Part shown: positions 870-20,000 of the stretch, piece after piece
Layout: each line of letters starts with the position of its first letter
Numbering within the stretch: position 1 is the stretch's first letter
DNA from: Methanomassiliicoccales archaeon
GTDB taxonomy: Archaea; Thermoplasmatota; Thermoplasmata; RBG-16-68-12; SOIM01
Direction: 5' to 3'
Assembly: GCA_004377185.1 (NCBI GenBank)
Contig: SOIM01000059.1
Location: 100,325 to 120,324 of the forward strand
Length of the DNA: 20,000 nt
Translations under genes and position numbers: made by a program
The notes under the pieces: model-generated
Seen by the model: the letters and a program-made list of their open reading frames with translations, nothing else
Told to the model about the DNA's origin: nothing
Database searches by the model: none

Positions 870-878
870 GGTGGTAAC

Positions 879-3647: not shown

Positions 3648-5125
<1,478 letters not shown>

Positions 5126-5126
<1 letters not shown>

Positions 5127-5398: not shown

Positions 5399-5406
5399 GA
5401 TGGGAA

Positions 5407-5832
5407 ATGGCTGACATAAGGTTCAATGAAGAGACGCTTCGCTACGTATCATTGTTTCAAAGAGTCACAAGGTCGACCGTGAAGGACTGTCTGGACACTC
5501 CAGAAGGGATTATCTTTGTCGTCAGCCAGGGAGAAGGGGGCAAGGCGATCGGGAGGGGTGGAAAGAATGTCTCCAGACTCAAGGACACACTTAACAAAGA
5601 CGTGCATGTCATTGAGTATTCACCCATTCCTGAACAGTTCCTGAGGAACATATTCAGGAGTTACAAAATCAAGAGCGTCGAGATAGAGAAGATGGAAAAG
5701 GGGATGCATGCGACCGTGTCTGTTGACGCAGTTCAAAAGGGGATGGCGATCGGGAGAGATGCGAGGAATCTGAGAATCGCCCAGGAGCTGATGAGCAGAC
5801 ACCACAAAATAGACAGTGTAAGTATCGCCTGA
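5407..5832 (+). CDS. nusA: NusA-like KH-domain transcription factor (archaeal NusA)
   Basis: 141 aa with two KH-type GxxG sites (GKAIGRGGKNVSRLKDTLNKDVHVIEY and GMAIGRDARNLRIAQELM). It follows rpl30e in the conserved order. Confidence 0.94.
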   Translation: MADIRFNEETLRYVSLFQRVTRSTVKDCLDTPEGIIFVVSQGEGGKAIGRGGKNVSRLKDTLNKDVHVIEYSPIPEQFLRNIFRSYKIKSVEIEKMEKGMHATVSVDAVQKGMAIGRDARNLRIAQELMSRHHKIDSVSIA

Positions 5833-5885
5833 GGGACTGGGCGGTTTTCACGCAACAAGTACGGGCTTTTTAGCTACCAGGAAGA

Positions 5886-5893
5886 TTTATATT
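5886..5893 (+). promoter_or_regulatory. Candidate archaeal TATA box (TTTATATT) upstream of the Cys-rich ORF
   Basis: AT-rich box in the intergenic region. The predicted TSS is about 5916, 24 nt before the ATG at 5940. Confidence 0.5.
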
Positions 5894-5939
5894 CCTCCCT
5901 CCACTACGAGGAACTGCTATTGAAAGGGATGGGATACAC

Positions 5940-6200
5940 ATGTGTAGGTATTTCTACGGGCAAGGACGATGCGCCAATTCTGAAATCGCCAGCACTATTT
6001 GCACTGGCGAACGGGATTGTGAATCCTTCTCAGAGTCCACCCATCGGAAGGAGAGCAGTTGCGATTTCGATTCCTGGTACGGCCTCTACTGCGCGAAATA
6101 CAAGCGCTTCTTCTGTCCAGGAAAAGAGAGCTGCGAATCCTATGAAGAGTATGCACAAAGCCTGCAAGAGCATCGAAGAATGGATGAACGTCCCCTCTAG
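5940..6200 (+). CDS. Small Cys-rich protein with a tandemly duplicated four-Cys unit
   Basis: 86 aa: MCRYFYGQGRCANSEIASTICTGERDCESFSE... / CDFDSWYGLYCAKYKRFFCPGKESCESYEE. Two similar Cx8-9Cx7-9Cx5C-ES(F/Y) units in one frame argue for real coding. TATA box upstream. Confidence 0.6.
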   Translation: MCRYFYGQGRCANSEIASTICTGERDCESFSESTHRKESSCDFDSWYGLYCAKYKRFFCPGKESCESYEEYAQSLQEHRRMDERPL

Positions 6201-6232
6201 CTCACAATGTTCCACTGGAGCCTAGGGGGTAA

Positions 6233-6526
6233 CTATAGAGGTCGCTTGCACCTGGCGCAAACGAGCTTGCATTCCTTCTTGCACTCGAGGCAGACACCGT
6301 GTAGGAACCTCTCTCGGACCATGGCGTGATGGCAATCTGACACTGCCGTGACCATGTGTCCGCAGTAGTCACAGAGATGATGAACCGCTTTCTTACTGGC
6401 TATGTAGCGCTGGTAGGCCCACAGGAGTAATAGAGCTATTAAAAGAGCCACAATCGCGACCAGCAAGACCCAGCAAGGAGGGCCACCATCACCGTTTTCC
6501 AAGGGGATAGGCATTTCCTCTTCCAT
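6233..6526 (-). CDS. Small single-TM protein with a C-terminal zinc-ribbon-like domain
   Basis: 97 aa: TM segment CWVLLVAIVALLIALLLLWAYQRYI followed by CDYCGHMV...CHHAMV...CLECKKECKLVCARCKRPL. A TATA at 6536-6544 favours the internal ATG at 6514 as a leaderless start. Confidence 0.65.
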   Translation of the reverse strand: MEEEMPIPLENGDGGPPCWVLLVAIVALLIALLLLWAYQRYIASKKAVHHLCDYCGHMVTAVSDCHHAMVRERFLHGVCLECKKECKLVCARCKRPL

Positions 6527-6535
6527 TCCATTCTG

Positions 6536-6544
6536 TTTATATAA
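6536..6544. promoter_or_regulatory. Shared or bidirectional TATA element between the zinc-ribbon ORF and ksgA
   Basis: TTTATATAA lies in the divergent intergenic region, about 27 nt from ATG 6514 (minus) and about 43 nt from ATG 6583 (plus). Confidence 0.45.
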
Positions 6545-6582
6545 TACTTGTTTAGAACAAGGGCGTCCCTGAAAAGTATATT

Positions 6583-7419
6583 ATGGCCAAGCCTCATGGA
6601 CGCATGATGTCCCTTTCAGAAGTGAAAGAGCGGATCAGAAAGATGGGGTTGCGACCCAGCAAGAGACTGGGGCAGCATTTCTTGGTGGACGAAGCGATTG
6701 CCAACCGCCAGGTGCAGTACGCCGATATCGGAAGAAGGGACACAGTTCTGGAGATTGGACCCGGATTGGGGACTCTAACAAGAATTCTCGTTGAGAGAGC
6801 AGCAAAGGTCATTGCTGTTGAGTTGGACCCTCTGGCGGCCGATTATCTGCGGAAAGAGCTCAGTGATGTTGAGGTCATCCAAGATGATGTTCTGAAGATA
6901 GAGCTGCCAAAGTTCGACAAAGTTGTCTCGAATCTTCCTTTCAAGATCTCATCTCCCGTGACCTTCAAGCTTCTTGAGCAGGAATTCGAAGGGGGCATCC
7001 TGATGTATCAGAAGGAGTTCGCGCAACGACTGGTTGCCACCAAGGGAGACTCCAGCTATTCAAGGCTCTCTGTCAGCACATACTACAGAGCAAGATGCGA
7101 GATTCTGGAAACGGTTCCCAGGTCTGCGTTCTTTCCCGAACCCAGGGTGGAATCCTCAATAATCAGAATCGCTCCCCGACCTCCGCCTTTCGAAGTGAAG
7201 AGCGAAGAACATTTCCACAAGCTGGTCAAGGCCCTGTTCACCCACAGACGCAAGAAGATTGGGAATTCGCTCCTTCTCGCCTGGAATAAGCTGTGTGATA
7301 GTAAAGAGACAATGAGCCAGATAGTCTCGGACCTACCCAATTCCCACATGAGGGTGGAACAGCTCAGTCCCGAGGAATTGGGAGGCCTGTCCAACAGGAT
7401 TCTACAAGGAAAAGTTTAA
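6583..7419 (+). CDS. ksgA: rRNA adenine-N6,N6-dimethyltransferase (KsgA/Dim1 family)
   Basis: 278 aa: LRPSKRLGQHFLVDEAIA, SAM motif VLEIGPGLGTLT, DDVLK, catalytic motif SNLPFKISSP, and a C-terminal FTHRRKKIGNSL. Confidence 0.95.
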   Translation: MAKPHGRMMSLSEVKERIRKMGLRPSKRLGQHFLVDEAIANRQVQYADIGRRDTVLEIGPGLGTLTRILVERAAKVIAVELDPLAADYLRKELSDVEVIQDDVLKIELPKFDKVVSNLPFKISSPVTFKLLEQEFEGGILMYQKEFAQRLVATKGDSSYSRLSVSTYYRARCEILETVPRSAFFPEPRVESSIIRIAPRPPPFEVKSEEHFHKLVKALFTHRRKKIGNSLLLAWNKLCDSKETMSQIVSDLPNSHMRVEQLSPEELGGLSNRILQGKV

Positions 7420-7471
7420 TTTAGGGAATGGTCATCATTCCAGCCCTTCCAGCAAGCAAGGAAAGATCACA

Positions 7472-8341
7472 ATGGTTAGGAAGAGAACCAGGACAGAACT
7501 GCAGCTCGCAGAGATCAAGTACCGTAACCTTCTCGACAAAAGGGATGCACTCAATGAAGATGCGAATGTCTTCAGGGATGAGAGGGACACGCTGAACGAA
7601 GAGAGGAGAGAGTCGAACGAGAAGATGCAGGCCATGAAGGAGCAGAGAGACGCACTGGTTACCGAGATGAGAATCCACAAGAAGGAACGGAACGAGTGCC
7701 AGAAGAAGGCAAAGGAGCTCATCGAGATACGGAGAAAGAGGAGAAAGGATGTCGGGAAGAATCTCGGTCTTCACCTAGAAAGGTTGAGGAAGGACATAGA
7801 GAACCTCCAGAAGAAGCAGGAAACCGTTCCAATGGAGCTCAAGGATGAGAACCTCCTCCTTGAAGAGATGAAGCGAAAGAGACTGGATATTGAAGAATGC
7901 GAGAACATCTACAAAGAGCAGCAAGAAATCTCTGAGGACATCGAGAACCTGGATGATTCAATAGATAGCCTTTTCAGAAAGGCGGACGCAGAGCACGAAA
8001 TGGTCGTCAGACTGTCTGAAGAAGCCCAGGGCATTCACGAGAAGATTGTCGATTTGATGAAGGAAATCTCCCACCTGATTGCGGAGGCGAACAAGAAACA
8101 TGACGAATTTTCCGAAATAAGGGAAAAGGCGGACCACTATCACAGAAGAGCAATGGAAATGAAGTCAAAGGTTCTGTCAATAAAGAGAGTGAAGAGGGAA
8201 GAAGAGAGAGAAGCCCGAAAGATTCTCAAACAACAGAAAATAGAGGTGAAGGAGGCTCTGGACAGCGAGGAGAAGCGAGAAAAAGCGGCCGATGAAGCCC
8301 TGGAGACCCTTCTGAAAAAAAAGAAAGTGGAAATGGGGTGA
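7472..8341 (+). CDS. Archaeal coiled-coil protein (COG1340-like)
   Basis: 289 aa, almost entirely charged heptad-rich coiled coil (KYRNLLDKRDALNEDANVFRDERDTLNEERRESNEKMQ...). The stop overlaps a GTG in a GTGA arrangement. Confidence 0.8.
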   Translation: MVRKRTRTELQLAEIKYRNLLDKRDALNEDANVFRDERDTLNEERRESNEKMQAMKEQRDALVTEMRIHKKERNECQKKAKELIEIRRKRRKDVGKNLGLHLERLRKDIENLQKKQETVPMELKDENLLLEEMKRKRLDIEECENIYKEQQEISEDIENLDDSIDSLFRKADAEHEMVVRLSEEAQGIHEKIVDLMKEISHLIAEANKKHDEFSEIREKADHYHRRAMEMKSKVLSIKRVKREEEREARKILKQQKIEVKEALDSEEKREKAADEALETLLKKKKVEMG

Positions 8342-8405
8342 TCGTACGAAAGCCATAATCCTAGCCGGGGGCGCAGGCACGAGACTGAGGCCCCTCACGG
8401 AGAAG

Positions 8406-9434
8406 ATGCCCAAACCGCTCATTCCCGTCGCGGGCAGGCCGTGCATCGATTTTGTGATCAAGTCTCTGGTCGCTTCGGACTTTCGAGAGATTGTCATAGC
8501 GACGGGATACATGTCTGACTACTTGATGAAGAGAATGGGGGACGGACTCAAGTACAACGCATCCATTCTTTACTCGTTTGAGGACACACCAGCTGGCACG
8601 GCCGGGGCGGTCAAGAAAGTTGGAGACTTCATAGATGACACGTTCATAGTTGCCAGCGGTGACGTCTTGGCCGATGTGAACATGCGCGATCTGTACGACT
8701 ACCACAGAAGGACCGGGTCGGTTGCGACAATGGCCCTCACGGAAGTCAAGAACCCCGAAGGGTTCGGAATCGTGGAACTGGATGAGAGGAACAGAATAAC
8801 CAGGTTCAAAGAGAAACCGAAATCGCATGAGGTATTCTCGAACCTCATCAACGCAGGGATCTATGTCCTTGAACCCGAAGTCCTTGATTTCATTCCTCCG
8901 GACGAGATGTTCGACTTCTCGAAGAATGTGTTCCCCGCACTGCTCGAAGAAGGACTCATAATCTATGGAAAGAAGTTGGACGGGTTGTGGATGGATATTG
9001 GGAAACCGGACGACTTGATGAAGGCAAGTAGAGAGGTGATAATGCGTCAAGGGAAGGAGTTCCACAAGGAGGGTGTGGAGTCCAACGCAAAATGTATCAT
9101 ATCCGATTCTGCCGACATTGAGACAGGTGTAAGGCTGGTTGGCCCCTGTTTCATCGGCAACCACGCATCAATCCGCAAAGACACCGTGATAGAGAACTCA
9201 TGCATCTATGAGGACGTCCTCGTTGAGAGCGGCGCTGTAATAAGCAATAGTATAGTGTTGGAAAAGACCAGAATCGGACTTCAGAGTGAGATTCTTGACA
9301 GTATACTCTCGAGGAACTGTACGGTGGAAGAGGACGTGAAGATAAGCAAGAGTATAATAGGGGACGAGATGACGATAAAGACCCAGTCTCGTTTGGAGAA
9401 CGCGAACGTATCTCCACCTGCAGAAGAATCCTGA
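8406..9434 (+). CDS. NDP-sugar nucleotidyltransferase (mannose/glucose-1-phosphate type) with left-handed beta-helix C-terminus. The true N-terminus probably lies upstream, around 8338-8352
   Basis: The 342-aa called ORF contains PKPLIPVAGRPCIDFVIKSL and a hexapeptide-repeat C-terminus. The in-frame sequence upstream of the ATG encodes RTKAIILAGGAGTRLRPLTEKM, the nucleotide-binding signature, but has no start codon after the in-frame TGA at 8313. Confidence 0.9.
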   Translation: MPKPLIPVAGRPCIDFVIKSLVASDFREIVIATGYMSDYLMKRMGDGLKYNASILYSFEDTPAGTAGAVKKVGDFIDDTFIVASGDVLADVNMRDLYDYHRRTGSVATMALTEVKNPEGFGIVELDERNRITRFKEKPKSHEVFSNLINAGIYVLEPEVLDFIPPDEMFDFSKNVFPALLEEGLIIYGKKLDGLWMDIGKPDDLMKASREVIMRQGKEFHKEGVESNAKCIISDSADIETGVRLVGPCFIGNHASIRKDTVIENSCIYEDVLVESGAVISNSIVLEKTRIGLQSEILDSILSRNCTVEEDVKISKSIIGDEMTIKTQSRLENANVSPPAEES

Positions 9435-9452
9435 AACTCCTCTTCACCAACC

Positions 9453-9460
9453 TTTATAAA
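9453..9460 (+). promoter_or_regulatory. TATA box for the antiporter gene
   Basis: TTTATAAA centred about 27-28 nt before the ATG at 9484, consistent with a leaderless mRNA. Confidence 0.6.
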
Positions 9461-9483
9461 GTATTTGTCGCATTCGCAATCTA

Positions 9484-11385
9484 ATGCGAAAGCGGATGGG
9501 AGCACTCGTAACCTTCGCACTTTTTCTTGGGATACTGTTCTCCAGCACCGCATTGGCTCAAGAACACATTGGGAACACGGATGTGATAATCCTCCCGGAA
9601 GGAGAGTATCAAGAAAGGGTGGAAATCGGATCCTCGGCCAACTACTCCTGGAAGCTTCTCAATTCCAACAGCGCAACATACCTGGTGAACATCAGTTTTG
9701 ACACGGACAACTTGGACGTGGAGGTGAACCTCTCATCGGTTCAACTCCAGCTCTTGCCCATGGATCTGAAAGAGGTCTTCCTGATCGTTGGGTCTGGAGA
9801 GGCTGGTGCCGGAGACGTTGCAATCGTCAGCGTAACCTTCAACGCAACAGACCTGGCGACGCTGGTGAGCCAAGAGGAAACCGTCACTACGACAACTGAG
9901 ATATTTGCTCAGGAACCGGTCACCGAGATACCAACAGTTCTGCTCGCATTCATAGCTGTGGCTGCGATCATCTTCATAGGGTTCTTCGCCACCCTCATAT
10001 TCCAGAAAACAAAAGTGCCAGATTTGCTCATACTGGTCATTCTTGGATTGATACTCGGTCCTGTCGCCACGACCTACTTTGGGATCGAGCTCATCCCGCA
10101 CAACATTTTGGATTTCGTGATGCCCTATTTCGCCGCACTCGCTCTTGTGATAATCCTTTTTGACGGCGGACTCAACCTGAACTTTGACCTGGTGCTGAGG
10201 AAGATAAACATCGCCTTCATCCACACGATGGTGGCATTCATTCTGACGATCGTCTCTGTTGCGTTAGTTGCTCACTTCATCCTCGGCTACCCCTTGATCT
10301 TGGGTATTCTGCTTGGATGTGTCCTTGGAGGCATCAGCGGAGCGGTGGTCATCACCTTAGTGAGAAGAATGAAGATAAGTGAGGAGACCAAGACGGTGCT
10401 CACCCTCGAATCCGTTCTGACGGACGTCATATGCATTATTGTTGCTTTGGCCCTCTTGGAATTCATCGTAGGAACGGAAGACCCGGCGGGCGCGGTCACC
10501 AGTCTCTTTGCAGGCTTCTCGATTGCATTCTTTGTCGGACTGATATTCGGGATTGCCTGGCTGAAGATACTCAGGAGGCTGTACGGCAAGCCGTTCTCCT
10601 TCATGATCACAATTGCTGCTCTCTTCATGCTCTACGGCATTGTCGAGTTCGTGGGCGGAAGCGGAGCGATGGCCGCTCTGATATTCGGTCTGGTCCTCGG
10701 AAACAAGGAAGAGATTGCCAGGATGTTCAAGATCAAAACTAAGTTCGTGATTGATGAGAAGATAAAACAATTCCATTCTGAACTTTCCTTTGTTGTCAGA
10801 ACGTTCTTCTTCGTTTTCTTAGGTTTGGTCTTCACCCTTTCCTTGAGCGACGATATGGCGGTCACGACACCCATACCAGGCTTGGATCTTCTGAACAACA
10901 CCGCTACTCTCTTTATTCTCGGTGTAATCATAATCTTCATAGTTCTGATGGCAACCCGTTATCTGGCTTCCGTCATCACCACAAGAATACATCCGGAGAG
11001 CAGGGACGACAGATTCGCAATATGGATTATGATGGGGAGAGGACTGGCCGCGGCAGTCTTGGCATCTCTGCCCTTCACGATTGCTGCTTTCAGGGAAGGG
11101 ACTGCGTACTACGATCTCATGAGCCCATACAAGGAACAGTTCCTGAACATAGCATTCTTGATAATCGTCATGAGCGTGGTGGTCACTACAATGGGAGTCG
11201 TCATGTCTGAGAGAAGAAGAGCGGGATTGCATCCCATCGATATAGAGAAAATGAGACTCCAGAGAAAGCAGGAAGCGATGAAGAAGAGGGAACTGAAGGC
11301 GAAGATGGAACAGGAAAGAAGAATTAGGATTCATAAGAAGAAGCACAGAAAAAGGAAAGAGGAGAGGAGGAAGCCGAAGCAATAG
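9484..11385 (+). CDS. CPA-family Na+/H+ antiporter-like protein with signal peptide, secreted N-terminal domain and basic C-terminal tail
   Basis: 633 aa. Signal peptide (ALVTFALFLGILFSSTALA), a ~110-aa extracytoplasmic domain, then a CPA-type core (VPDLLILVILGLILGP, IILFDGGLNLNFDLV, GGISGAVVITLV, TLESVLTDV, IMMGRGLAAAVLA). Lys/Arg-rich tail. Confidence 0.88.
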   Translation: MRKRMGALVTFALFLGILFSSTALAQEHIGNTDVIILPEGEYQERVEIGSSANYSWKLLNSNSATYLVNISFDTDNLDVEVNLSSVQLQLLPMDLKEVFLIVGSGEAGAGDVAIVSVTFNATDLATLVSQEETVTTTTEIFAQEPVTEIPTVLLAFIAVAAIIFIGFFATLIFQKTKVPDLLILVILGLILGPVATTYFGIELIPHNILDFVMPYFAALALVIILFDGGLNLNFDLVLRKINIAFIHTMVAFILTIVSVALVAHFILGYPLILGILLGCVLGGISGAVVITLVRRMKISEETKTVLTLESVLTDVICIIVALALLEFIVGTEDPAGAVTSLFAGFSIAFFVGLIFGIAWLKILRRLYGKPFSFMITIAALFMLYGIVEFVGGSGAMAALIFGLVLGNKEEIARMFKIKTKFVIDEKIKQFHSELSFVVRTFFFVFLGLVFTLSLSDDMAVTTPIPGLDLLNNTATLFILGVIIIFIVLMATRYLASVITTRIHPESRDDRFAIWIMMGRGLAAAVLASLPFTIAAFREGTAYYDLMSPYKEQFLNIAFLIIVMSVVVTTMGVVMSERRRAGLHPIDIEKMRLQRKQEAMKKRELKAKMEQERRIRIHKKKHRKRKEERRKPKQ

Positions 11386-11405
11386 CTCCTCCTGCCATGT
11401 GATGC

Positions 11406-12956
11406 CTAAATCTTCTCCTCACCATGCATGTAAATCACTCGTTGCGGGAACGGAATCTCTATGTTTTCTTCCTTGAAGCGTTTGTCAATCAATTCCTTCA
11501 GTTCGCTCTCCACGCGCCACTTGTTCTCGACCGCGTCTAACCAGAAAATCACTTTCAGATTGACGCTCGAGTCCGCAAACTCCGTCACCCGGAACACGGG
11601 ATCCTGTTTGTCGCCTTTCAGGACGTTTGGATGGCTCTTCACGAGATCAAGCAACACTTTCTTGACACGATCCATGTCCGTTCCATATGCCACGCCGATC
11701 GTGATACTGGATCTACCCCTGGCATCAGGCATGGTCACATTCACGACCCTCTGTTCGGCCAACATGTTGTTGGGCAGGACTATCATCTCATGAGTGGCCA
11801 TATGGTACAACTTCGTGCTTCTCAGGCCCACCCAAGCAACTCTGCACACCTCTCCTGAGTTCAACTTTATCAGGTCGCCCGCTTCGAAAGGTCGGTCCAG
11901 CATCAGGAATATCCCACTGAAGAAGTTGGAGAGCGTGTCCTGGGCTGCGAAAGCAATGATAAGACCCATCACCCCCATTCCTGCCAGGAACAACGTTATG
12001 TCATAGCCGAGAGACTGCATGACGAATATCATCCCAATAAGGATTATGACCACTCCCCCCACCTTACCGATGACGGGTATCAATCGATCATCCAAATCGG
12101 TCTGGGTCTTCGCCGAGAGTATCCGGCCGTAGTAGATGAGGATGTCTTTGAAAAGCTTGTATGCTATCCAGGTGAACAATATGACCATCACAAGGCCGAA
12201 AACCGTGTCGAAAAGGCCTGCCATATCGGACGGGAGCCCGATTATGCCAAGACAGATGGCAAGCCCCGAAATCACAATCATAATGAAAATCGGCCCTTTC
12301 ATTATCTCAACAATCATGTCATCCAGACGGGTTTCAGTGTGAGCGACTGCCCTTGCAAAGACCTTCGTAATAAGAACCACAAGTCCAGCTAACAATACCC
12401 ATATCAGAAAGCTCACCAGGAAGGCACCCCACTTGTTGTCCAGGGGAGCGGGGAGGGGGTTGTCGTAGGGCCAGAACAGAATGAACAGCTTCCCTTCTGG
12501 ATCGGCAGGATGTGTAATACCCGTCAGTCGATTGGTGGTGTAGAAGGTCTCTTCGAAGTCATCTCCTGTGCTTATGTTGATCGCTCTGATAGACAACCCG
12601 ATTGATACCGTTGCCTCCCCCCCATCGGAAGGAGCAGTGACAATAAGGGAGACATCCTTGCAGCTATCATCACTTTGATTCGGTCCGATGTATTCATATG
12701 TCGGGGAGGCCCGGGCTTGGAAAATGGTCTCATTGATGACGGGAGTCAACCCTATGTGGTAGCGGTCCCCTCCTTGGTTGCACAATATCCATGTGTAGGT
12801 TATCTCCTCGTCCAGATGTAAGTCGGCTTCGTGATCACCGACGGGGATGACCAGGATATCAGTCCCGTCCAACTGATCCTCTGCGAGCGCATTCAGACTG
12901 AAGAATGACAATAACATCAGGCAGAACACAAAGACCATCGCAGTTCTTCTGGGCAT
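11406..12956 (-). CDS. MscS-family mechanosensitive channel with signal peptide and secreted N-terminal domain
   Basis: The called ORF begins at 13121, but MPRRTAMVFVFCLMLLSFFSLNALA is a signal peptide starting at 12956, just downstream of a minus-strand TATA at 13011-13019. MscS signatures: LIIAFAAQDTLSNFFSGIFLMLDRPFEAGDLI, HEMIVLPNNMLAEQRVVN, VIFWLD. Confidence 0.88.
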   Translation of the reverse strand: MPRRTAMVFVFCLMLLSFFSLNALAEDQLDGTDILVIPVGDHEADLHLDEEITYTWILCNQGGDRYHIGLTPVINETIFQARASPTYEYIGPNQSDDSCKDVSLIVTAPSDGGEATVSIGLSIRAINISTGDDFEETFYTTNRLTGITHPADPEGKLFILFWPYDNPLPAPLDNKWGAFLVSFLIWVLLAGLVVLITKVFARAVAHTETRLDDMIVEIMKGPIFIMIVISGLAICLGIIGLPSDMAGLFDTVFGLVMVILFTWIAYKLFKDILIYYGRILSAKTQTDLDDRLIPVIGKVGGVVIILIGMIFVMQSLGYDITLFLAGMGVMGLIIAFAAQDTLSNFFSGIFLMLDRPFEAGDLIKLNSGEVCRVAWVGLRSTKLYHMATHEMIVLPNNMLAEQRVVNVTMPDARGRSSITIGVAYGTDMDRVKKVLLDLVKSHPNVLKGDKQDPVFRVTEFADSSVNLKVIFWLDAVENKWRVESELKELIDKRFKEENIEIPFPQRVIYMHGEEKI

Positions 12957-13010
12957 GGGGCAGGCAATGGAGAGACGACTAATAAACCTTCTCAATGTGC
13001 ATCTCAATAG

Positions 13011-13019
13011 TATTAAATA
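13011..13019. promoter_or_regulatory. Near-palindromic bidirectional TATA element
   Basis: GTATTAAATAC in the divergent region. It lies 28 nt from ATG 13043 (plus, leaderless spacing) and about 58 nt from ATG 12956 (minus, about 30-nt leader). Confidence 0.5.
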
Positions 13020-13042
13020 CGGACCCATTTCTAAGCAGAAAC

Positions 13043-13966
13043 ATGGAGATTCTCTCCCTCCTGAGGTTTCTGGTTGGTGGCATTTTCCTAGGCTTTGCCG
13101 CAATCTCTGATGTGAGGACAAGGAGGGTTCCGAACCGAGTGTGGATCCTTCTTGGTTTGGTTGGTTTCATCATCCTCGCGTGGGACCTGCAACAGAGATT
13201 CCAGACCAGTTGGGTACACTATCTCATCTTCATTCCGGCAGGGGTGCTTTTGTTTGAAGTGTACATTGACAGAGACCCGATCATTGATGACGAAGGATTC
13301 CATTTCGTTCCGTTGGCATTTCTCCTATACGGGCTCGCAGTGGTGGTCTTGATTGCACAGGTCTACTTGCTGTGGGGAAATCCAGAGCAGATGCATCTCT
13401 TCTATCAGTTACTGACCATACCTATCATGATAATTGTAGCTCATATTCTATATCAAACCGGTCTGTTGAGAGGGGGCGCGGACGCAAAAGCCCTGATGTC
13501 CCTGGCGGTATTGGTCCCCTTCTACCCGATGTTCTACGACTTTCCCCTTGTGAGTATGAATGCTGGTGTTGCGGATATTATGAGCATTGCGTTTCCATTC
13601 GCGCTGGTGATCTTGATGAACAGTGCCATCCTGATGATCTTCATTCCCTTGGTTTTCCTGGCAATAAACGCCAAGAGAAGGGATTTGGAGTTTCCGCAGT
13701 GCTTGGTCGGATATAAGGTGAAGCTGAATGAATTTCCGAGATTTGCTTGGCTGATGGAGAAAGTTGAGAATGGGAAGGTTCGAATTGTCCTCTTTCCCAG
13801 GAGGAGCGGGAACCAGAAAAGAGAGGTTCGAGTGCTTCTCGAAATGGGAAGAGACAAAGCCTGGGCGACCCCTCAGTTGCCTTTCATGGTTCCAATGTTC
13901 TTTGGATTCCTGATATCCTTCCTAGTGGGCAATCTGATAATGGGGCTAGTGTACTCGTTTGTATGA
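13043..13966 (+). CDS. Archaeal type IV prepilin/preflagellin peptidase-like aspartic protease (A24 family)
   Basis: Called from 12995, but the MEILSLLRFLVGG start at 13043 fits the TATA. Contains first Asp motif SDVRTRRVPN, second Asp motif GGADAKALM, and multiple TM helices. Confidence 0.85.
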   Translation: MEILSLLRFLVGGIFLGFAAISDVRTRRVPNRVWILLGLVGFIILAWDLQQRFQTSWVHYLIFIPAGVLLFEVYIDRDPIIDDEGFHFVPLAFLLYGLAVVVLIAQVYLLWGNPEQMHLFYQLLTIPIMIIVAHILYQTGLLRGGADAKALMSLAVLVPFYPMFYDFPLVSMNAGVADIMSIAFPFALVILMNSAILMIFIPLVFLAINAKRRDLEFPQCLVGYKVKLNEFPRFAWLMEKVENGKVRIVLFPRRSGNQKREVRVLLEMGRDKAWATPQLPFMVPMFFGFLISFLVGNLIMGLVYSFV

Positions 13967-14007
13967 TTTGCGCAACCTTCGATGCACGTGGATAACATCA
14001 AAAAATC

Positions 14008-14014
14008 TTTATAT
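14008..14014 (+). promoter_or_regulatory. TATA box of the 5S rRNA gene
   Basis: TTTATAT centred at 14011, about 27-30 nt upstream of the 5S rRNA 5' end. Confidence 0.65.
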
Positions 14015-14040
14015 CCAATTAGCCTTGGAACACATTGGTA

Positions 14041-14267
14041 TGACGGCCACAGCGGTGGGGATACACCTGGTCTCATCCCGAACCCAGAAGTGAAGCCCAC
14101 CTACGTTCTCTGCGGTACTGTGGTGCGCGAGCCCACGGGAAGTTTAGCCCCTTCGGGGGTCGTGGACCTCTGGCCTAGGTACGGGAGCTGGTTTCCAGCG
14201 GCTTCGGCCAACGGTTATCGGTAACCCGTGCTGCTTTAACGGCCTTCTGGTGCATGGAAAGCCGTCA
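14041..14267 (+). rRNA. rrf: 5S ribosomal RNA with a ~108-110 nt insertion
   Basis: The core matches archaeal 5S: CCACAGCGGTGGGGATACACCTGGTCTCATCCCGAACCCAGAAGTGAAGCCCACC...GGTACTGTGGTGCGCGAGCCCACGGGAAG. Terminal helix I TGACGGC (14041-14047) pairs with GCCGTCA (14261-14267). The 3' half is displaced by an extra structured segment. Confidence 0.93.
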
Positions 14268-14273
14268 GCCACC

Positions 14274-17200
14274 TCACTCTTCTTCCTCGTCTTTTCCATT
14301 GGTCCGGTCCTGCTTATATCTCCACACAAAGAAGATGGCGAAAACACTCACAATCGGAATGACGAATGTATCGAATTCTGGAACCCTAACCACCGTATAG
14401 TCACTGCTTTCCTCAAGCGGGTATTCGTTCACGGTGGTGTAGTTGAGAAATGCCCAATTCGTGAGATACACACCATCAGGGGCGGTGGCGTTAACGGTCA
14501 CGGTTATCGTGAACGAATGGATGCCAGGATCTACGTCATAGAAATGAAAGACATAGGTGAGGCCCAATTGAGACTCGTACGGAACACTAGAGGAGGTGAA
14601 GGTTGTGTATATCGGAATTGTATCGTTCACCCAGACATGGGCTGCAGTCCCGTTTCCGGTGTTGTTGTAGTAAATCGTGTAGGTGATGGGATCTCCAGGT
14701 CCGGCATCGGTCACATCCGCAATCTTGACAACCGCGATAACTGGCCTGACTATGACCATCGTCTTGTTAGCACTAGACCATTCCATTGGCTGTCTGAACA
14801 CATCTGTGTAGTTCAATTCCACGAAGTTGTTGAACTGTGTTCCATCAACAGTCCCATTATTGACCCGTACCGTGATAGTGAACGAGTTCTGCGTGTTTGG
14901 GGCAACATTGGTGAATTCCCAGTAGTAGGTGCTCCCGGAAAAGGACTGATAAGGTTCGCTGGAAGATACGTACGTAACTTCATCAGGAAGTGTGTCGTTT
15001 ATCCAAACGTCCTTGGAGATACCCCCGCCCGCGTTGTTGTAATAGACAGTATAGGTGAAGGTGTCACCCGGAGCAGCGGTGTTCTGGCTAGATGTCTTCT
15101 CCACCGTTATCCTTGGCCGGTGTCTCTCATTGTATTTGCCCTTCGTTGGGGAAGTGGAAACATACCAATCGTCCTTGTCAGCGTCCGTATCCTCAGGTTT
15201 GCCGTCCGTTGCGCCCTTGAATCGAGCCCAGCTCTCTCCGCTTTTGAGTCTAGGCAATTTCGTAGCATCCACCACTGTTCCCGTCGAGTCCACTAAACGG
15301 ACATCGACTGATTTGTCTTTTATCGAATTCGCGGGTAGGTCGAAGGCCAAATACTCACTCCCGCTCATCCAAGCCCCAATAGAAACGGCCCCAAACGTGT
15401 GGACCGTTTTCCATTTTCCCTTGTCCTTCACTTGAAACTCCCAATTGTCCAGATTGATTGCTGAAGATGTAGGGTTCGCCAGCTCGAACCACTCACCTGT
15501 ATTCCCTGGGGAGTAGATTTCGTTCAGGACGACATTGTCACCGGCAGGAGATCTGGTTCCGATAGCCTCGGCCCTCGAACGGCCTATGGCTTGGTCTGAG
15601 AGATCGGAGGCGGACTGCCAGTCCACAATGTGGAAGAGCGCGAAGAAGTCGGGCGCCAAGGGTTGGATGGAGGACACGGGAACAGATAGCTCCAATGTGT
15701 TGGTATCCAAGCTCACTTGACTGAGATTTTCCACAAGAACCCAGGGGATGTTTCCTCCGTTGTATTTGTATAGACCCTTCAAGAGAGGAACCCCATTCCT
15801 TCCGGAAATTGCTATGAGGTAATCCATCCCGTAGGTCTGACCACCGAAATCAACGGGCAAACCTGTGGAGGCGTTATCAGCATCCAAGAGTATCGAGATC
15901 TTGTCCACTCCCATCAATTCCGAGATAGAAATAGGACCGATGTAAACTGAGACATTCTTGTTCGCGTAGTCTGGATGGAAATCGGCTGGAATGGTTGTGT
16001 TCAGCCAATAGTCAGACCCTACCGGGTAGTCAATGATGTTGTCACCATCAACATCATGGTTGGTCAGTCTGTCCGGAGTCTCATCATTGTTGAAATCACG
16101 TGGATGCAGATCCATTTCATCCGGGACGGTATCCCGATCGCTGTCCATAACAGAAGGTCCTATGGTGGGCCTTTGCCTGAATGTCGGGATATCGATCCCT
16201 CCCAACATCCTTCCGTCAACTTTCATGTAGAATGAAGCTGTGATTCCAATCTCGAGAGCGTAGCTTCTAAGGTCAACATTCTCATTCATCAACGCACCGG
16301 TTTGACCTCCCACAACGTCGTTGTCAGCATCCATTCTTATCGAGCTTGAACCCCAATCACCGAAGGCTCCGTCAATCGTTATGGGTGGTGCGACATCACA
16401 GTACACTCTCGTAAGGGCAACATCCCGAAGAGACAGAGTCGCGTTCGAGACAAATCCACTAACGCTGAGACCTATGTACCGACCCGGTGGCACATCAGTG
16501 AAGACTGCTGTCACGATTAAAGTCAATCCTTCATCCACATCAATGTCCACATCCAGTACGGCCAAATCCGTGAAGAAGTTGCCTGAAGAGATCTGTTCAT
16601 CTGGCACGCTATTCGCATCGTAATCGACATACAGAATGAGATCCACTGAAGTATCCGGGACGTTTCCCGTCTTGGTGATATTGATTTGAGAGATGTGAGC
16701 TCTTCCGTTTGCAGCGTCCATGTCAAGCCTCAGGAAATGCACGGGACCACTGGTATCGACAATCTCTGGGGCAATGGTAGTCTGAACGACCTGAAGGACA
16801 TCCTTCTGAGGGCTGATGATTGCATCAGCGAAATCGCGGTTGCCAGAAAAGTCAGAAGTTGCCACGATGACTTTCGGTGTCCCCTCGGCCTTCACGCGGA
16901 AAAGGACTTCAAGCTCGCTGTCACCAATGGCCGTGGTTGCGGATCCAATCTTCCGGAAGCCGTTCCAGTCATTCCTGCGCACCGTTTCCCTGAATTCATA
17001 CATGGCACTCTGATGAACCGAGTTGTTCCACCCAAAGGCCTCAATGAGATAGTCCGAGCCGATTCCCCCAACGGGATACCCAGTGGACGGGTCATCATCA
17101 TGATCAACGAAGATGTAGATGGATTCGACCCCACTATTGCTCGAACCGTTGAGAATCGTGCCTTCCACCTCGGCATAAACGTACACCGTGTTCTTGTGCC

Positions 17201-18881
17201 CGTCTATCTTGTATGAGATAATGTTCACATCTGGGTTCCCAATCTGGTCCAGATCTGAATCGGAGAATGACCTGACACCCAGCCAGTCGTCGAAATTCCC
17301 GTCGATTGTGATTCTTGAGACATCTTCACTAGGGGCCATCATGCCGAAAATAAGTGGTGCAAGTATCAGAACAGACATTACAGCGGCGAGACCTCCCAAC
17401 GCTTTCGGCCATTGCGCATCCCTGGGCGTGAAGCGTGGCATATGCCTGGCAGCTCTTCCGTTAACAAGGCCGTTCCCGTTTATGAGGCCGTTGACTAAAC
17501 CGTTGACCCTACCTACCCCATTCACCAGACCGTTCACCAGTCCGTTTACGAGACCGTTGAGCCGGCCTATGCCATTGATCAGCCCGTTGACCCTTCCCAT
17601 GCCGTTAATCCGGCCGTTGACCCGGCCATTGACTCGACCGTTCACACGACCGTTGACCCGGCCGTTCACCATTCCGTTAACGAGGCCATTCGTTCTTCCC
17701 AACTTCTGGATGAGCCCCTTTCCCGAAGTCTTGCCTTCGAGGAGACCCATCTTCCTCAGACCCGCAAGGTCGTTTACCTCCTTGAGCCTCTCCTGCCTGG
17801 CGGACTCGATAGCCTTATCATAACTTGCCAGAGCTTCCTCGTGCTTGCCGATCTTGTCAAGAAGTTCTCCCCTTGTCTGCCAGGCCTGTTTGAGAGTCGG
17901 ATCCGCTCTGAGAAGTTCCTCGTAATGTTCAATCGTTCTCTCGATTTCTTCTTTCTCATCCACAAGGCGGGGTTCTTCCAGTTCAATGCCCGGGACCTCG
18001 AGGCCCTCCCTCTCTTTGACGATATTGAGGACTTCGAGCTTGTATTCCCCCTCCTTCTCGGGATCGAGCTCTGCCAGTCGGTCATAGCACTCGATTGCTT
18101 CGTCAAGTCTGCCCAACTCAATCAAAATGAAGGCTTTCTTCTTCCAGGCCCTCTCCAAAGTGGGATCTACTTCCAATAGACTTTCGTAATGTCGGAGTTC
18201 TTCCCCCAGCCTTTGTACGCCTATCCCTTCCTCCCTCTCACTGATTCGCTTCCATCTCTTGAGGAAATCCTTAGCCAGGGCCTTGTCTTCTCTTGGCTTC
18301 TTCTCTAGGACATGTTTCTCCAAGGCCCTCCTGAACTCTTCCTCTGGAGGGCCTTTGATATCCTTCTCCAGCTCTTCCAGTTGGTCCTCAAGCTGCTCGA
18401 CGAGTCTTTCGAAGTCTTCGTCCCTTTCTGGTTCTTCTTCGAAAGTGACTCCGCAATGGGGACATTTCCGGATGTCCTGTGCGATGAACCTACCACAAGC
18501 TGGGCACAGATACAAGGCTGGTTCTTCCTCTTCCTCCTCTTCTACAATCTCAGGCTCTGGAGCCAGCTCTTCCTCCGCTGGCACCTCTTCAAAAACAGCT
18601 CCGCAGACTTCGCATTTCTTGGCGGACTTGCTGATGAACGCACCGCATTCTGGACAAAGATAAAGAAAGGCTTCCTCTTCTTTTATCCGAGCAATCTCTT
18701 GGGCATAGTCCTTCAGGCGCTTCGCCAGTTCCTTGCCTATGCCTTCGACCTTTGCTATCTCCTCGATTTCTGCCTCACGCAGCGATTCTGGAGTGGTGAA
18801 ACCCGCTTCCTTCAGCCATTTGGCCCTCCGTGGGCCGACTCCAGGTATGAGAGAAATCCATTGGAGGAAGTCTTCTTCCAT
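14274..18881 (-). CDS. Giant multidomain membrane/surface protein: HhH, 2x zinc ribbon, TPR, NG-repeat, TM, 2x DOMON-like with Ca-binding-like region, LTD (lamin-tail-like), 2x DUF11, C-terminal TM
   Basis: 1535 aa. HhH (LIPGVGPRRAKWLKEAGF, VEGIGKELAKRL); CPECG...CEVCG and CPACG...CPHCG; TPR repeats; GRTNGLVNGMVNGRVNG...; TM ALGGLAAVMSVLILAPLIFGMM; ITIDGNFDDW and ITIDGAFGDW; DSDRDTVPDEMD; LNEIYSPGNTGEWFELANP; two YTVYYNNAG/YTIYYNNTG repeats; VPEFDTFVIPIVSVFAIFFVWRYKQ. Confidence 0.9.
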   Translation of the reverse strand: MEEDFLQWISLIPGVGPRRAKWLKEAGFTTPESLREAEIEEIAKVEGIGKELAKRLKDYAQEIARIKEEEAFLYLCPECGAFISKSAKKCEVCGAVFEEVPAEEELAPEPEIVEEEEEEEPALYLCPACGRFIAQDIRKCPHCGVTFEEEPERDEDFERLVEQLEDQLEELEKDIKGPPEEEFRRALEKHVLEKKPREDKALAKDFLKRWKRISEREEGIGVQRLGEELRHYESLLEVDPTLERAWKKKAFILIELGRLDEAIECYDRLAELDPEKEGEYKLEVLNIVKEREGLEVPGIELEEPRLVDEKEEIERTIEHYEELLRADPTLKQAWQTRGELLDKIGKHEEALASYDKAIESARQERLKEVNDLAGLRKMGLLEGKTSGKGLIQKLGRTNGLVNGMVNGRVNGRVNGRVNGRVNGRINGMGRVNGLINGIGRLNGLVNGLVNGLVNGVGRVNGLVNGLINGNGLVNGRAARHMPRFTPRDAQWPKALGGLAAVMSVLILAPLIFGMMAPSEDVSRITIDGNFDDWLGVRSFSDSDLDQIGNPDVNIISYKIDGHKNTVYVYAEVEGTILNGSSNSGVESIYIFVDHDDDPSTGYPVGGIGSDYLIEAFGWNNSVHQSAMYEFRETVRRNDWNGFRKIGSATTAIGDSELEVLFRVKAEGTPKVIVATSDFSGNRDFADAIISPQKDVLQVVQTTIAPEIVDTSGPVHFLRLDMDAANGRAHISQINITKTGNVPDTSVDLILYVDYDANSVPDEQISSGNFFTDLAVLDVDIDVDEGLTLIVTAVFTDVPPGRYIGLSVSGFVSNATLSLRDVALTRVYCDVAPPITIDGAFGDWGSSSIRMDADNDVVGGQTGALMNENVDLRSYALEIGITASFYMKVDGRMLGGIDIPTFRQRPTIGPSVMDSDRDTVPDEMDLHPRDFNNDETPDRLTNHDVDGDNIIDYPVGSDYWLNTTIPADFHPDYANKNVSVYIGPISISELMGVDKISILLDADNASTGLPVDFGGQTYGMDYLIAISGRNGVPLLKGLYKYNGGNIPWVLVENLSQVSLDTNTLELSVPVSSIQPLAPDFFALFHIVDWQSASDLSDQAIGRSRAEAIGTRSPAGDNVVLNEIYSPGNTGEWFELANPTSSAINLDNWEFQVKDKGKWKTVHTFGAVSIGAWMSGSEYLAFDLPANSIKDKSVDVRLVDSTGTVVDATKLPRLKSGESWARFKGATDGKPEDTDADKDDWYVSTSPTKGKYNERHRPRITVEKTSSQNTAAPGDTFTYTVYYNNAGGGISKDVWINDTLPDEVTYVSSSEPYQSFSGSTYYWEFTNVAPNTQNSFTITVRVNNGTVDGTQFNNFVELNYTDVFRQPMEWSSANKTMVIVRPVIAVVKIADVTDAGPGDPITYTIYYNNTGNGTAAHVWVNDTIPIYTTFTSSSVPYESQLGLTYVFHFYDVDPGIHSFTITVTVNATAPDGVYLTNWAFLNYTTVNEYPLEESSDYTVVRVPEFDTFVIPIVSVFAIFFVWRYKQDRTNGKDEEEE
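17458..17697 (-). repeat. In-frame 12-bp-period tandem repeat encoding (N-G-x-x)n
   Basis: The + strand shows imperfect units such as ccgttgacccgg / ccgttcacacga / ccgttgagccgg. The translation has 19 NG dipeptides in about 80 aa, with xGRxNG spacers. Confidence 0.9.
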
Positions 18882-18903
18882 TCATAACATTTAGCTCTGA
18901 ACA

Positions 18904-18912
18904 ATATATAAA
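18904..18912 (-). promoter_or_regulatory. TATA box of the 1535-aa protein gene
   Basis: The minus strand reads TTTATATAT centred at 18908, 27 nt from the first base of the ATG at 18881 (leaderless spacing). Confidence 0.6.
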
Positions 18913-18982
18913 CCGTTTATCGCTCTGGAATCACCTGTTTTGACGATAAATCGGAAATCTCTCGAACAGAATTTTGTAAATC

Positions 18983-19684
18983 CTATGCCAGCACTGTTGC
19001 GAAGGGGTCGGTCGAGACATTCAGGATGCTTTTCTCGGCCCCTAAGGAGATTTCAACGATGAGAGAGACGCTTGCCCTTCTCACAATCTTCGGTTTCAGA
19101 CCCTCACCGTCCAGCTTCTTGAGAATGTTCTTCTGGAACGTTTTCTGCCTGGTGAAATTCCCCTCCCTCTTCTTCTTCAGGATGTCAGTGGGGAAGTACC
19201 TGGTGTAGATGCCGTCCTGTATCTTGGATGCCAGGCCAAGCTGTTCCAGTTTCTGGGTCGAACGTGTTGCGGTTTGGCTGCTTATTCTCATGGATTTGGC
19301 GAGATCGCTTTGAGTTGAGCCGGGATTGTCGACCAGATGGACGTAGACCTTACGCATTCTCTCTTCGCTCAGGAGCTCGAATACCCCCAGAGTGTCCTGT
19401 GAGACGAGCCCCGCTGGATAGTACAACGTCCTTCTTCCTGAGACCTTGCTCACCACCAGTTCTCCTTCCCTGAGTTTGTTCAGATGCCACTTCGCGGTAT
19501 TGGGTGAGACCTCCAGGGCTTTGGATATGTCAGAAAGATGAGAACAAGGACGGATGCAGAGATACTCGAACAGCCTTCTCCTAACGGGGTTCATGAGAAG
19601 TGATATTCCTCTTCTCCCTTCCTTTTCCTCTGGCTCCTTGCGACCAATCATTCTCTGGAAGGCTCTTCCAACCCCCTCCGGCAT
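18983..19684 (-). CDS. Transcriptional regulator with two winged-helix domains (ArsR/MarR-like)
   Basis: 233 aa. First wHTH: MNPVRRRLFEYLCIRPCSHLSDISKALEVSPNTAKWHLNKLREGELVV. Second wHTH: RKVYVHLVDNPGSTQSDLAKSMRISSQTATRSTQKLEQLGLASK. Confidence 0.88.
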   Translation of the reverse strand: MPEGVGRAFQRMIGRKEPEEKEGRRGISLLMNPVRRRLFEYLCIRPCSHLSDISKALEVSPNTAKWHLNKLREGELVVSKVSGRRTLYYPAGLVSQDTLGVFELLSEERMRKVYVHLVDNPGSTQSDLAKSMRISSQTATRSTQKLEQLGLASKIQDGIYTRYFPTDILKKKREGNFTRQKTFQKNILKKLDGEGLKPKIVRRASVSLIVEISLGAEKSILNVSTDPFATVLA

Positions 19685-19972
19685 CTATTCACCAGAGTAC
19701 TCATTCAGGATGCTTTCTATAAGATTGGAGGCTTTCATGTCCTTGAAGTCGACATCCTTGAGTTCGTCCAGCGCCTTTTCCAATCTTGAGAATACTTGAG
19801 GCGGAATGTCCGATTTCTTCTCGAGCAGTTTCTTCTTCATCTCTTGAGGAATCTTGTCGGTTGTCCCCTTTTCGAAATCGCCCTTCTCAACCACCAGACC
19901 GAGGCCTTTCATTATGTAGTAAGGATGGGACAGTTCACTGTGCCGGCTGCTCCTGCACTTCACGATCTTCAT
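19685..19972 (-). CDS. Small conserved-looking hypothetical protein, co-transcribed upstream of the wHTH regulator
   Basis: 95 aa. The stop TAG is immediately followed by the ATG of the regulator (TAGATG). No recognised domain. Confidence 0.55.
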   Translation of the reverse strand: MKIVKCRSSRHSELSHPYYIMKGLGLVVEKGDFEKGTTDKIPQEMKKKLLEKKSDIPPQVFSRLEKALDELKDVDFKDMKASNLIESILNEYSGE

Positions 19973-20000
19973 CGTCCGGCTGACTCCCCCTTCAAGCGGG

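Follow-up and report, generated by a model that had tools for sequence, protein, structure and literature searches.

The locus described here raises the question of why an archaeon should build a single protein in which domains of the nucleic-acid-binding type are followed by a large ectodomain of the kind found at cell surfaces. The window, i.e., the whole stretch of 20,000 nucleotides that was analyzed (contig SOIM01000059.1, positions 100,325 to 120,324, of the assembly GCA_004377185.1 of a Methanomassiliicoccales archaeon), carries on its minus strand a gene (14274-18881) that starts with an ATG codon and encodes a predicted 1535-aa membrane glycoprotein made up of a head in the cytoplasm, a loop outside the cell, and a tail of PEF-CTERM-like type. 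The open reading frame proposed in a preliminary description, made from the sequence without database searches, is real and lies on the minus strand. Because the gene is adjacent to those of a KaiC-like ATPase and a DNA-binding protein, its product probably links the cell surface to gene control. These upstream genes, together with the KaiC and helix-turn-helix (HTH) fusions of its relatives and with the PEF-CTERM-like tail, argue for a signaling or coupling device of the KaiC-hub type rather than for a plain DNA tether.

A protein search returned 397 homologues at E <= 1e-5, of which more than 100 align end to end over the full architecture with 32-65% identity, a recurrence far beyond chance; the genomic survey suggested in the preliminary description thus finds the complete architecture in more than 100 homologues. 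All of them come from metagenome-assembled Thermoplasmata or Thermoplasmatota and are annotated in generic terms (e.g., "lamin tail domain-containing" or "DUF11 domain-containing" protein) and in no others. Relatives are encoded on 408 stretches of GTDB species representatives, CP070767.1 being the closest, and the family spans up to about 400 species-level metagenome-assembled genomes of uncultured Thermoplasmata. The order of the parts is constant in the family, i.e., a helix-hairpin-helix (HhH) domain, from one to more than six zinc ribbons, TPR repeats, an Asn-Gly (NG) repeat, a first transmembrane helix (TM1), the ectodomain, and the tail, and a genome may hold several paralogues with variable ectodomains.

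An exact-match look-up of the 1535-aa protein gave no record, and we found no paper pairing Thermoplasmata with the lamin tail domain or DUF11 with the surface layer (S-layer). The preliminary description knew of no function for this combination of domains, which agrees with the generic annotations and with our having found no paper on the family. The parts are all of known kinds: an (HhH)2 domain, zinc ribbons, TPR repeats, a lamin-tail-like domain (LTD), DUF11 repeats, a PEF-CTERM-like tail, and a KaiC-like partner. What we have not found described in the literature is their assembly into a giant surface glycoprotein with both termini inside (N-in/C-in) and a head of nucleic-acid-binding type, tied to a KaiC-like ATPase and a double winged helix-turn-helix (wHTH) protein.

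The KaiC-like and winged-helix genes upstream

The gene directly upstream (18983..19684, minus strand) encodes a double wHTH protein of 233 aa, with an ArsR-like domain followed by a TrmB/MarR-like one. It is preceded by the gene of the KaiC-like ATPase (19685..20000, minus strand), which runs off the end of the window, so that only its C-terminal ~105 codons are present, and which was completed by reference to orthologous loci. The stop codon of the KaiC-like gene abuts the ATG of the wHTH gene. The full-length KaiC-like orthologues have about 290 aa and a single domain with an intact GxxGxGKT P-loop (e.g., L002:6322-7197), and this partner matches PF06745 at E 4e-37 and KaiC structures at E 1e-35.

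Fifty-seven related loci, those with at least 1.8 kb of upstream sequence, were informative about this arrangement (the counts for PolD and the A24 peptidase given below refer to 75 loci), and in 48 of them the KaiC-like and wHTH genes stand directly upstream on the same strand. Four of the exceptions are permuted, with a wHTH gene, a divergent KaiC-like gene, and a big protein that has a KaiC-like N-terminus, and most of the remaining ones are paralogues adjoining a canonical triad. The junction between the KaiC-like and wHTH genes is an overlap or a gap of 0-3 nt in most loci. The spacer between the wHTH gene and the big gene measures 80-110 nt and contains, among eight close relatives, a conserved TATA box and a conserved block upstream of it. 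In the window, the TATA-like box tttatatatt (18903..18912, minus strand), located about 27 nt upstream of the ATG and conserved in the relatives, is the promoter of the big gene itself, whose mRNA is probably leaderless. The block GTTCnAG....TTCC (~18955-18969, minus strand), 5' of the TATA box and shared with relatives whose big proteins are 43-80% identical, may be an operator for the adjacent wHTH protein. The KaiC-like partner is about 69% identical across lineages whose big protein is 33-45% identical. The search for homologues of the wHTH protein returned 19 close relatives only, and no wider context. The evolutionary coupling of the big protein to the KaiC-like ATPase and the wHTH protein is, as judged from these comparisons, strongly supported.

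The relatives also show fusions of the same parts. A profile of the first ectodomain module (domain A, described below) was searched against 1.84 billion representative proteins at E <= 1e-3, the matches being clustered at 50% identity, and gave at least 1358 clusters. The members listed typically share the NG repeat, the transmembrane (TM) helix, domain A, and a beta-rich ectodomain that varies in content (Laminin_G_3, DUF2341, FG-GAP, disaggregatase repeats, or LTD), with a PEF-like tail in most of them. Their cytoplasmic heads differ, and Pfam bears out two head types. Some relatives have KaiC-domain heads (PF06745, E 1e-24 to 1e-27) in which the P-loop is degenerate (e.g., GPPGQEK or SPIPLEN), this inactivated KaiC domain (iKaiC) preceding the TPR repeats, zinc ribbon, NG repeat, TM helix, and domain A. 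In others (e.g., P0263) an ArsR-type HTH (HTH_5, 7e-13) is fused straight to the TM helix and domain A. The heads, be they HhH, wHTH, iKaiC, or zinc ribbons, are interchangeable on a common chassis of NG repeat, TM helix, domain A, and PEF-CTERM tail. SAP/Rho_N-like heads, considered for some relatives, have no Pfam support.

Topology and domains of the 1535-residue protein

The protein contains two hydrophobic segments only, at about residues 492-515 and about 1505-1520. Across 112 homologues, the density of N-X-S/T sequons rises from 0.17 per 100 aa before TM1 to 1.91 per 100 aa between the two hydrophobic segments, an 11-fold difference; with respect to the expectation from composition, their density is half before TM1 and nearly twice in the loop. 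The mean net charge of the 15 flanking residues in the same set is +2.7 before TM1 and -1.3 after it, and -0.9 before the second segment and +4.2 after it. Since the sequons are concentrated in the loop and the flanking charges obey the positive-inside rule, the predicted topology with the N-terminus inside, the loop outside, and the C-terminus inside is strongly supported, and with it the arrangement of the preliminary description, in which the head was placed inside, a large region outside, and both ends in the membrane. Its term "trans-envelope scaffold" is a fair one, given this topology and the likeness of the C-terminus to a sorting signal. TM1 (residues about 492-515; 17337..17408, minus strand), delimited by hydrophobicity, conservation, and the AlphaFold (AF2) model and containing the invariant P509, is strongly supported as a signal-anchor, and therefore the N-terminal ~490 residues are placed in the cytoplasm. 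The confinement of every Cys4 site to the head and the all-beta ectodomain that AF2 models between two helices speak for the same topology.

The head begins with an (HhH)2 domain (residues 12-61; 18699..18848, minus strand) that has the hairpins IPGVGPRRA and VEGIGKELA and matches Pfam HHH_5 (PF14520) with 49.6 bits over a cutoff of 27 (52.3 bits when the head alone is searched). The family profile of this domain matches the (HhH)2 domains of Topo V, XPF, Hef, and UvrC. The hairpins in the window, GVG and GIG, are of the canonical GhG form, and the second Gly is often T, S, or D in the family. It is followed by two CxxC...CxxC zinc ribbons, namely residues 76-97 (18591..18656, minus strand), whose C76, C79, C90, and C93 are invariant, and residues 126-148 (18438..18506, minus strand), whose C126, C129, C140, and C143 are at least 90% conserved; the zinc-ribbon profile (PF13248/DZR) scores 37.6 bits over a cutoff of 27, and every Cys4 site lies within the head. 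A helical/TPR array (residues 202-383; 17733..18278, minus strand) comes next, recognized by Pfam TPR_1/2/8 and by the AF2 model, with Pfam stretches at residues 244-275 and 319-351 and a TPR_1 score of 44.2 bits over a cutoff of 27.8. The HhH region, the two zinc ribbons, and the TPR-like repeats first read by eye are hence all above the Pfam cutoffs. The AF2 predicted local distance difference test (pLDDT) is higher than 93 for the HhH domain, about 80 for the zinc ribbons, and higher than 95 for the TPR array.

Near the start of the array there is a conserved linear motif, KDFLKRWKR (residues 203-211; 18249..18275, minus strand), with F206, R209, and W210 nearly invariant, which is a candidate docking site. 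Of 84 HhH heads, 75 have the motif, KDF(L)xRW(K/Q)R or DFxxRW; all nine true KaiC-fused heads lack it. This distribution would fit a site that recruits a separate ATPase, an interpretation that is kept provisional because the nine KaiC-fused heads form a small sample and are phylogenetically non-independent.

The charge of the head is less suggestive of nucleic-acid binding. The family median of the net charge is 0 for the HhH domain and -2 for the zinc-ribbon module, and the whole head has an isoelectric point (pI) of about 5 and a net charge of -25, with poly-Glu linkers. A nucleic-acid-binding surface on these segments, as had been supposed, is favored by the canonical GhG hairpins of the window protein and disfavored by a net charge of the HhH domain of about 0; DNA binding by the head is no more than possible, because the HhH and zinc-ribbon parts are neutral to acidic. 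The DNA- or ribosome-membrane tether that had been offered as a possibility is for this reason, and for the relaxed hairpins of the family, not well favored. The ribosomal variant was discarded, since what L32e shares with the head is the (HhH)2 fold as such, and RadA, NusA, XPF, and Topo V share it as well.

Between the head and TM1 lies the low-complexity NG region noticed before, which is a true array of (R/L)(V/I)NG tetrapeptides (about residues 398-482; 17436..17690, minus strand), encoded by 12-nt tandem repeats, with a net charge of +11 and a pI of 12. It is predicted to be disordered because its pLDDT is about 35. The repeat is rich in the deamidation-prone Asn-Gly pair and is not covered by any model of the Pfam copy that was searched. 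An xTNG/xVNG repeat immediately in front of the first TM helix characterizes the whole superfamily (P0151, P0187, P0226, and others) and is kept even where the cytoplasmic part consists of the repeat alone.

The exterior would consist of about 980 residues of N-glycosylatable beta-sandwich domains, i.e., A, B, C, LTD, and two DUF11 repeats, an assignment that is strongly supported. The AF2 model of residues 490-1535, computed with an alignment of 63 sequences, has a pLDDT of 88 and appears as a string of beta-sandwiches between two terminal helices. Domain A (residues 525-684; 16830..17309, minus strand), with the motifs IDGxFxDW and VDxDxxxxTGY, was delimited by AF2 as a beta-sandwich and by hhalign. 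Domain B (residues 694-828; 16398..16802, minus strand) is a beta-sandwich in the AF2 model, and domain C (residues 834-1094; 15600..16382, minus strand) is a duplicate of A according to both methods, the regions 520-690 and 830-1100 being homologous by hhalign with a probability of 99.1% and E 1e-18. In this alignment the second copy bears an Asp-rich insertion of roughly 100 residues that is absent from A. The Asp-rich part proper (residues about 899-959; 16005..16187, minus strand) reads DSDRD...DVDGDNIIDYP, and its DxDxDGxxD-like motif is conserved in the family. The Ca-binding-like segment of the preliminary description is thus confirmed as an Asp-rich insertion with a conserved motif, and by that motif it may bind calcium. 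Likewise, the two regions called DOMON/CBM-like are indeed two homologous beta-sandwich domains. The DOMON/CBM (CBM9-like) label itself is not supported at the level of sequence, because residues 531-1100 match no Pfam or PDB sequence: the A/C region gave no Pfam match at E <= 10 (residues 531-1101 and 19 domain-A sequences) and no PDB sequence match. When the ectodomain model was compared with PDB structures by Foldseek, the matches were confined to generic multi-Ig proteins (e.g., integrin alpha and alpha-2-macroglobulins), with uninformative TM-scores of 0.1-0.17.

The LTD (residues 1111-1244; 15150..15551, minus strand) is seen both by Pfam and in the AF2 model; PF00932 scores 35.0 bits at residues 1111-1206, which is borderline with respect to its cutoff of 34.3, and a precomputed LTD is present in most homologues. 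The two DUF11 repeats (residues 1258-1377, 14751..15110; residues 1382-1499, 14385..14738; both minus strand) are recognized by Pfam, NCBIfam, and hhalign, with 77.1 bits for DUF11 over a cutoff of 24.6 and 73.1 bits for TIGR01451 over a cutoff of 24, and they align with each other at E 4e-53. The LTD-like domain and the two DUF11 repeats noted earlier therefore exceed the Pfam cutoffs, the LTD narrowly.

The C-terminal hydrophobic segment, which had been read as a second TM helix, is present and resembles a PEF-CTERM sorting signal. The tail, VPEF-DTFVIPIVSVFAIFFVW-RYKQDR (residues 1500-1526; 14304..14384, minus strand), has the tripartite form of a PEF motif, a hydrophobic helix, and a basic cluster (RYKQDR), and P1501 and E1502 are invariant in 57 sequences. 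TIGR03024 is its best NCBIfam match, at 19.5 bits and E 8.5e-4, below the curated cutoff of 23. When this model was run on 10 tails, seven matched (the homologue P0013 with 23.7 bits and five more homologues with 14-18 bits, besides the window tail) and three did not. The pattern of PE[FLMY], helix, and basic cluster is found in 104 of 120 family tails, in 83 of 133 superfamily tails, and in 3 of 1260 internal control windows. The segment is probably a sorting signal, and it looks like that of PEF-CTERM substrates of an archaeosortase. Archaeosortase C has been reported to recognize PEF-CTERM on surface proteins (PMC5244752). No archaeosortase is found among the conserved neighbors, in an analysis that covered 20 kb of this genome. 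The destination of the protein at the cell surface, which the DUF11 and LTD domains and the PEF-CTERM-like tail indicate, is strongly supported.

After the basic cluster, 24 of 120 homologues (P0028, P0054, P0097, and others) have a conserved cytoplasmic GVADSVPxxGGR end, and the clade of the window protein ends in an acidic tail (…KDEEEE) without it. The presence of a conserved C-terminal peptide and a TPR array in one protein suggests that the TPR array may bind the tail.

Other genes at the locus and its relatives

The window is archaeal and includes genes for the C-terminus of rpoB, rpoA', rpoA'', L30e, NusA-KH, KsgA, a DUF7121 protein, a nucleotidyltransferase, a Na+/H+ exchanger, an MscS channel, and an A24 peptidase, as well as a lone 5S rRNA. 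The A24 peptidase gene (12995-13966, plus strand; prepilin/FlaK-like, GxGD-type) is convergent with the big gene, an arrangement that recurs in 38 of 75 loci and is missing at those of homologues of 1,800-2,900 aa, where the triad persists. The large subunit of PolD is a divergent neighbor in 34 of 75 loci. Both adjacencies are probably plain synteny; a proteolytic link from the A24 peptidase to the big protein is conceivable. Beyond PolD, upstream of the triad, 23 loci have genes for a PMT_2-like (dolichyl-phosphate-mannose-type) glycosyltransferase and a GT1 glycosyltransferase (L002:5-1687 and 1714-2808, both minus strand), which may bear on glycosylation of the ectodomain. Downstream of the big gene, 26 related loci encode a Ras/Rab-like small GTPase (PF00071, E 8e-34; e.g., L006:14104-14646, plus strand) that does not appear in the window.

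A stand-alone 5S rRNA gene (14039-14158, plus strand; Rfam, 69.7 bits), with no 16S or 23S gene near it, separates the A24 peptidase gene from the 3' end of the big gene. It is the sole RNA element adjoining the locus in the Rfam and tRNA scans, and the 80-aa open reading frame that overlaps it (13982-14224) is spurious. The DUF7121 gene (7472-8341, plus strand) follows KsgA and encodes a 289-aa protein with a weak SMC-like (coiled-coil) match; the same gene is found beside KsgA in L002 and L016. Finally, the locus L076 (JGI 3300009034, 185-11613) encodes a KaiC-fused paralogue of 2142 aa with an FG-GAP ectodomain, then a 351-aa stand-alone protein that resembles a zinc-ribbon/TPR head, and then an 1848-aa paralogue, so that tandem arrays of such genes are possible.

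Possible roles of the protein

A hub role in archaeal signaling has been proposed for the KaiC superfamily, its inactivated domains included (Makarova et al., 2017, as cited in PMC5847659). On this principle, the big gene would be the third gene of a module that comprises the KaiC-like ATPase, the double wHTH protein, and a membrane component, its own product. There is strong support for TM1 as a signal-anchor that keeps in the cytoplasm the (HhH)2 domain, both zinc ribbons, the TPR array with the DFxxRW motif, and the basic RVNG repeat, and for the PEF-CTERM-like tail as the part that holds the far end in the membrane, with processing by an archaeosortase being possible. The head may be the platform on which the KaiC-like ATPase, the wHTH protein, or both dock, and in this way a KaiC-type switch and the binding of the wHTH protein to DNA could respond to the state of the ectodomain (contact, Ca2+, matrix, or integrity), giving an archaeal analogue of a transmembrane receptor plus regulator. 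We put forward such a doubly anchored, KaiC-coupled surface glycoprotein tentatively, as a proposal that is quite possibly right.

Several points weigh against it. The whole basis of the mechanism is gene order, fusions, and domain logic; the neighbors could simply regulate transcription of the big gene, since it has its own TATA box; the KaiC-fused heads number only nine and are phylogenetically non-independent; the PEF-CTERM score of the window tail (19.5 bits) falls below the curated cutoff of 23; and a cleavage at TM1 might uncouple the head from the ectodomain. A bolder version, in which these proteins are trans-envelope receptors whose head is a nucleic-acid- and regulator-binding unit, maybe releasable by proteolysis, that would relay surface events to the chromosome through the KaiC-type ATPase, seems to us improbable.

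The main rival explanation is that the protein is structural, namely the main coat glycoprotein (S-layer-like or glycocalyx), held by TM1 and by a PEF-CTERM or lipid anchor, with a head that organizes the coat, e.g., through lattice contacts of the TPR array, and with neighbors that regulate its expression. A large, sequon-rich, all-beta ectodomain with DUF11 and LTD domains would suit such a role, as would a PEF-CTERM-like signal of the kind seen on archaeal surface and S-layer proteins, a strong TATA box of its own with a conserved upstream block that may be a wHTH operator, a family that is widespread within its clade, and the glycosyltransferase genes (PMT_2-like and GT1) often found near related loci. 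However, known archaeal S-layer proteins have cleaved signal peptides and lack cytoplasmic heads of 490 residues, and a genome may hold several paralogues with variable ectodomains. Moreover, the same core bears fused KaiC or HTH domains in relatives, and therefore a physical cytoplasmic role is favored over mere transcriptional control. We regard the structural explanation as possible, though on the whole unlikely.

The same fusions bear on the idea of a nucleoid-to-membrane tether, or of a membrane-tethered DNA-binding factor, in which the (HhH)2 domain, the zinc ribbons, and the R-rich NG repeat would make non-specific contacts with DNA at the membrane, acting with the wHTH protein and the RecA-superfamily ATPase, for chromosome positioning or a ToxR-like transcriptional output. 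An ArsR-type HTH does sit directly on the membrane core in relatives, the partner protein has two wHTH domains, the hairpins of the window protein are canonical and their profile matches Topo V, XPF, Hef, and UvrC, and the NG repeat is strongly basic (pI 12). Yet the HhH and zinc-ribbon modules are neutral to acidic, with poly-Glu linkers and a head charge of -25, the family does not conserve the second hairpin Gly, and in sister proteins an inactivated KaiC domain fills the position of the HhH domain, so that DNA binding is not the invariant function of the head. The divergent PolD gene of 34 of 75 loci would also fit a tether, except that its adjacency is probably plain synteny. This idea is, in our judgment, rather doubtful. 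It is still harder to believe that the protein is a precursor, cut either by a signal peptidase that removes TM1 or by a juxtamembrane protease (conceivably the A24 peptidase) that frees the head, to give separate proteins or a signal by regulated proteolysis. The invariant P509 near the end of TM1 is followed by small residues, as in a cleavage region, the C-terminus resembles a processed sorting signal, and the A24 peptidase is a convergent neighbor in 38 of 75 loci; this neighbor, however, is missing where homologues reach 1,800-2,900 aa and the triad is kept, and an n-region of 490 residues would be unprecedented for a cleaved signal. Neither a signal-peptidase motif nor a class III one could be recognized; the class III (prepilin) pattern [KR][GA]-hydrophobic does not fit the sequence before TM1, and such a signal is not claimed.

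Returning to the KaiC-coupled surface glycoprotein, its parts can be compared with several known systems. The substrates of archaeosortase C with PEF-CTERM (and, by analogy, those of PGF-CTERM/ArtA such as the Haloferax S-layer glycoprotein) are alike in having a tripartite signal at the end of a large glycosylatable surface protein, and TIGR03024 is the top NCBIfam match for most family tails tested, the window tail being below the curated cutoff. They differ in that many family homologues have 10-25 extra residues after the basic cluster and in that the N-terminus of the window family is a long cytoplasmic domain with a signal-anchor, not a cleaved signal peptide. One-component regulators tethered to the membrane and couplers between envelope and cytoplasm (ToxR/CadC, RodZ, and integrins) likewise have a head that binds nucleic acids or proteins in the cytoplasm, cross the membrane once, and expose a large domain for sensing or adhesion, integrin alpha chains being the best Foldseek matches only as generic strings of beta-sandwiches. 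There is no homology of sequence or fold with them, the wHTH is here a separate protein (except in P0263-like relatives), and a KaiC-like ATPase is interposed. The (HhH)2 domains of the RadA/Rad51 N-terminus, XPF/Hef, UvrC, Topo V, and haloarchaeal eL32 share the fold and the hairpin signature, whereas the domain of the window family is membrane-attached and not basic, and its hairpin glycines are relaxed. With respect to the KaiC-like hubs (Makarova, Galperin and Koonin, 2017, cited in PMC5847659), the module has a single-domain KaiC-like ATPase with a wHTH and a membrane protein, and there are iKaiC fusions; we found no description of a giant N-in/C-in surface glycoprotein with an HhH/zinc-ribbon/TPR head as the input partner.

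Signal transduction in archaea is poorly understood, and for the proposal of KaiC hubs there are few concrete systems in which both input and output are clear. The module described here, conserved in up to about 400 species-level genomes of uncultured Thermoplasmata, would supply a defined input domain outside the cell, a KaiC-like ATPase as the hub, and an output through the wHTH protein, and the natural fusions indicate which of its parts touch. If the trans-envelope receptors indeed reach the chromosome, they would constitute an unrecognized and widespread class of archaeal machinery for outside-in signaling or for nucleoid-to-envelope coupling. Apart from this, the analysis defines a large superfamily of PEF-CTERM-type surface proteins with a new family of ectodomain folds and a juxtamembrane NG repeat, which is relevant to how archaea without a conventional cell wall build and monitor their surface.

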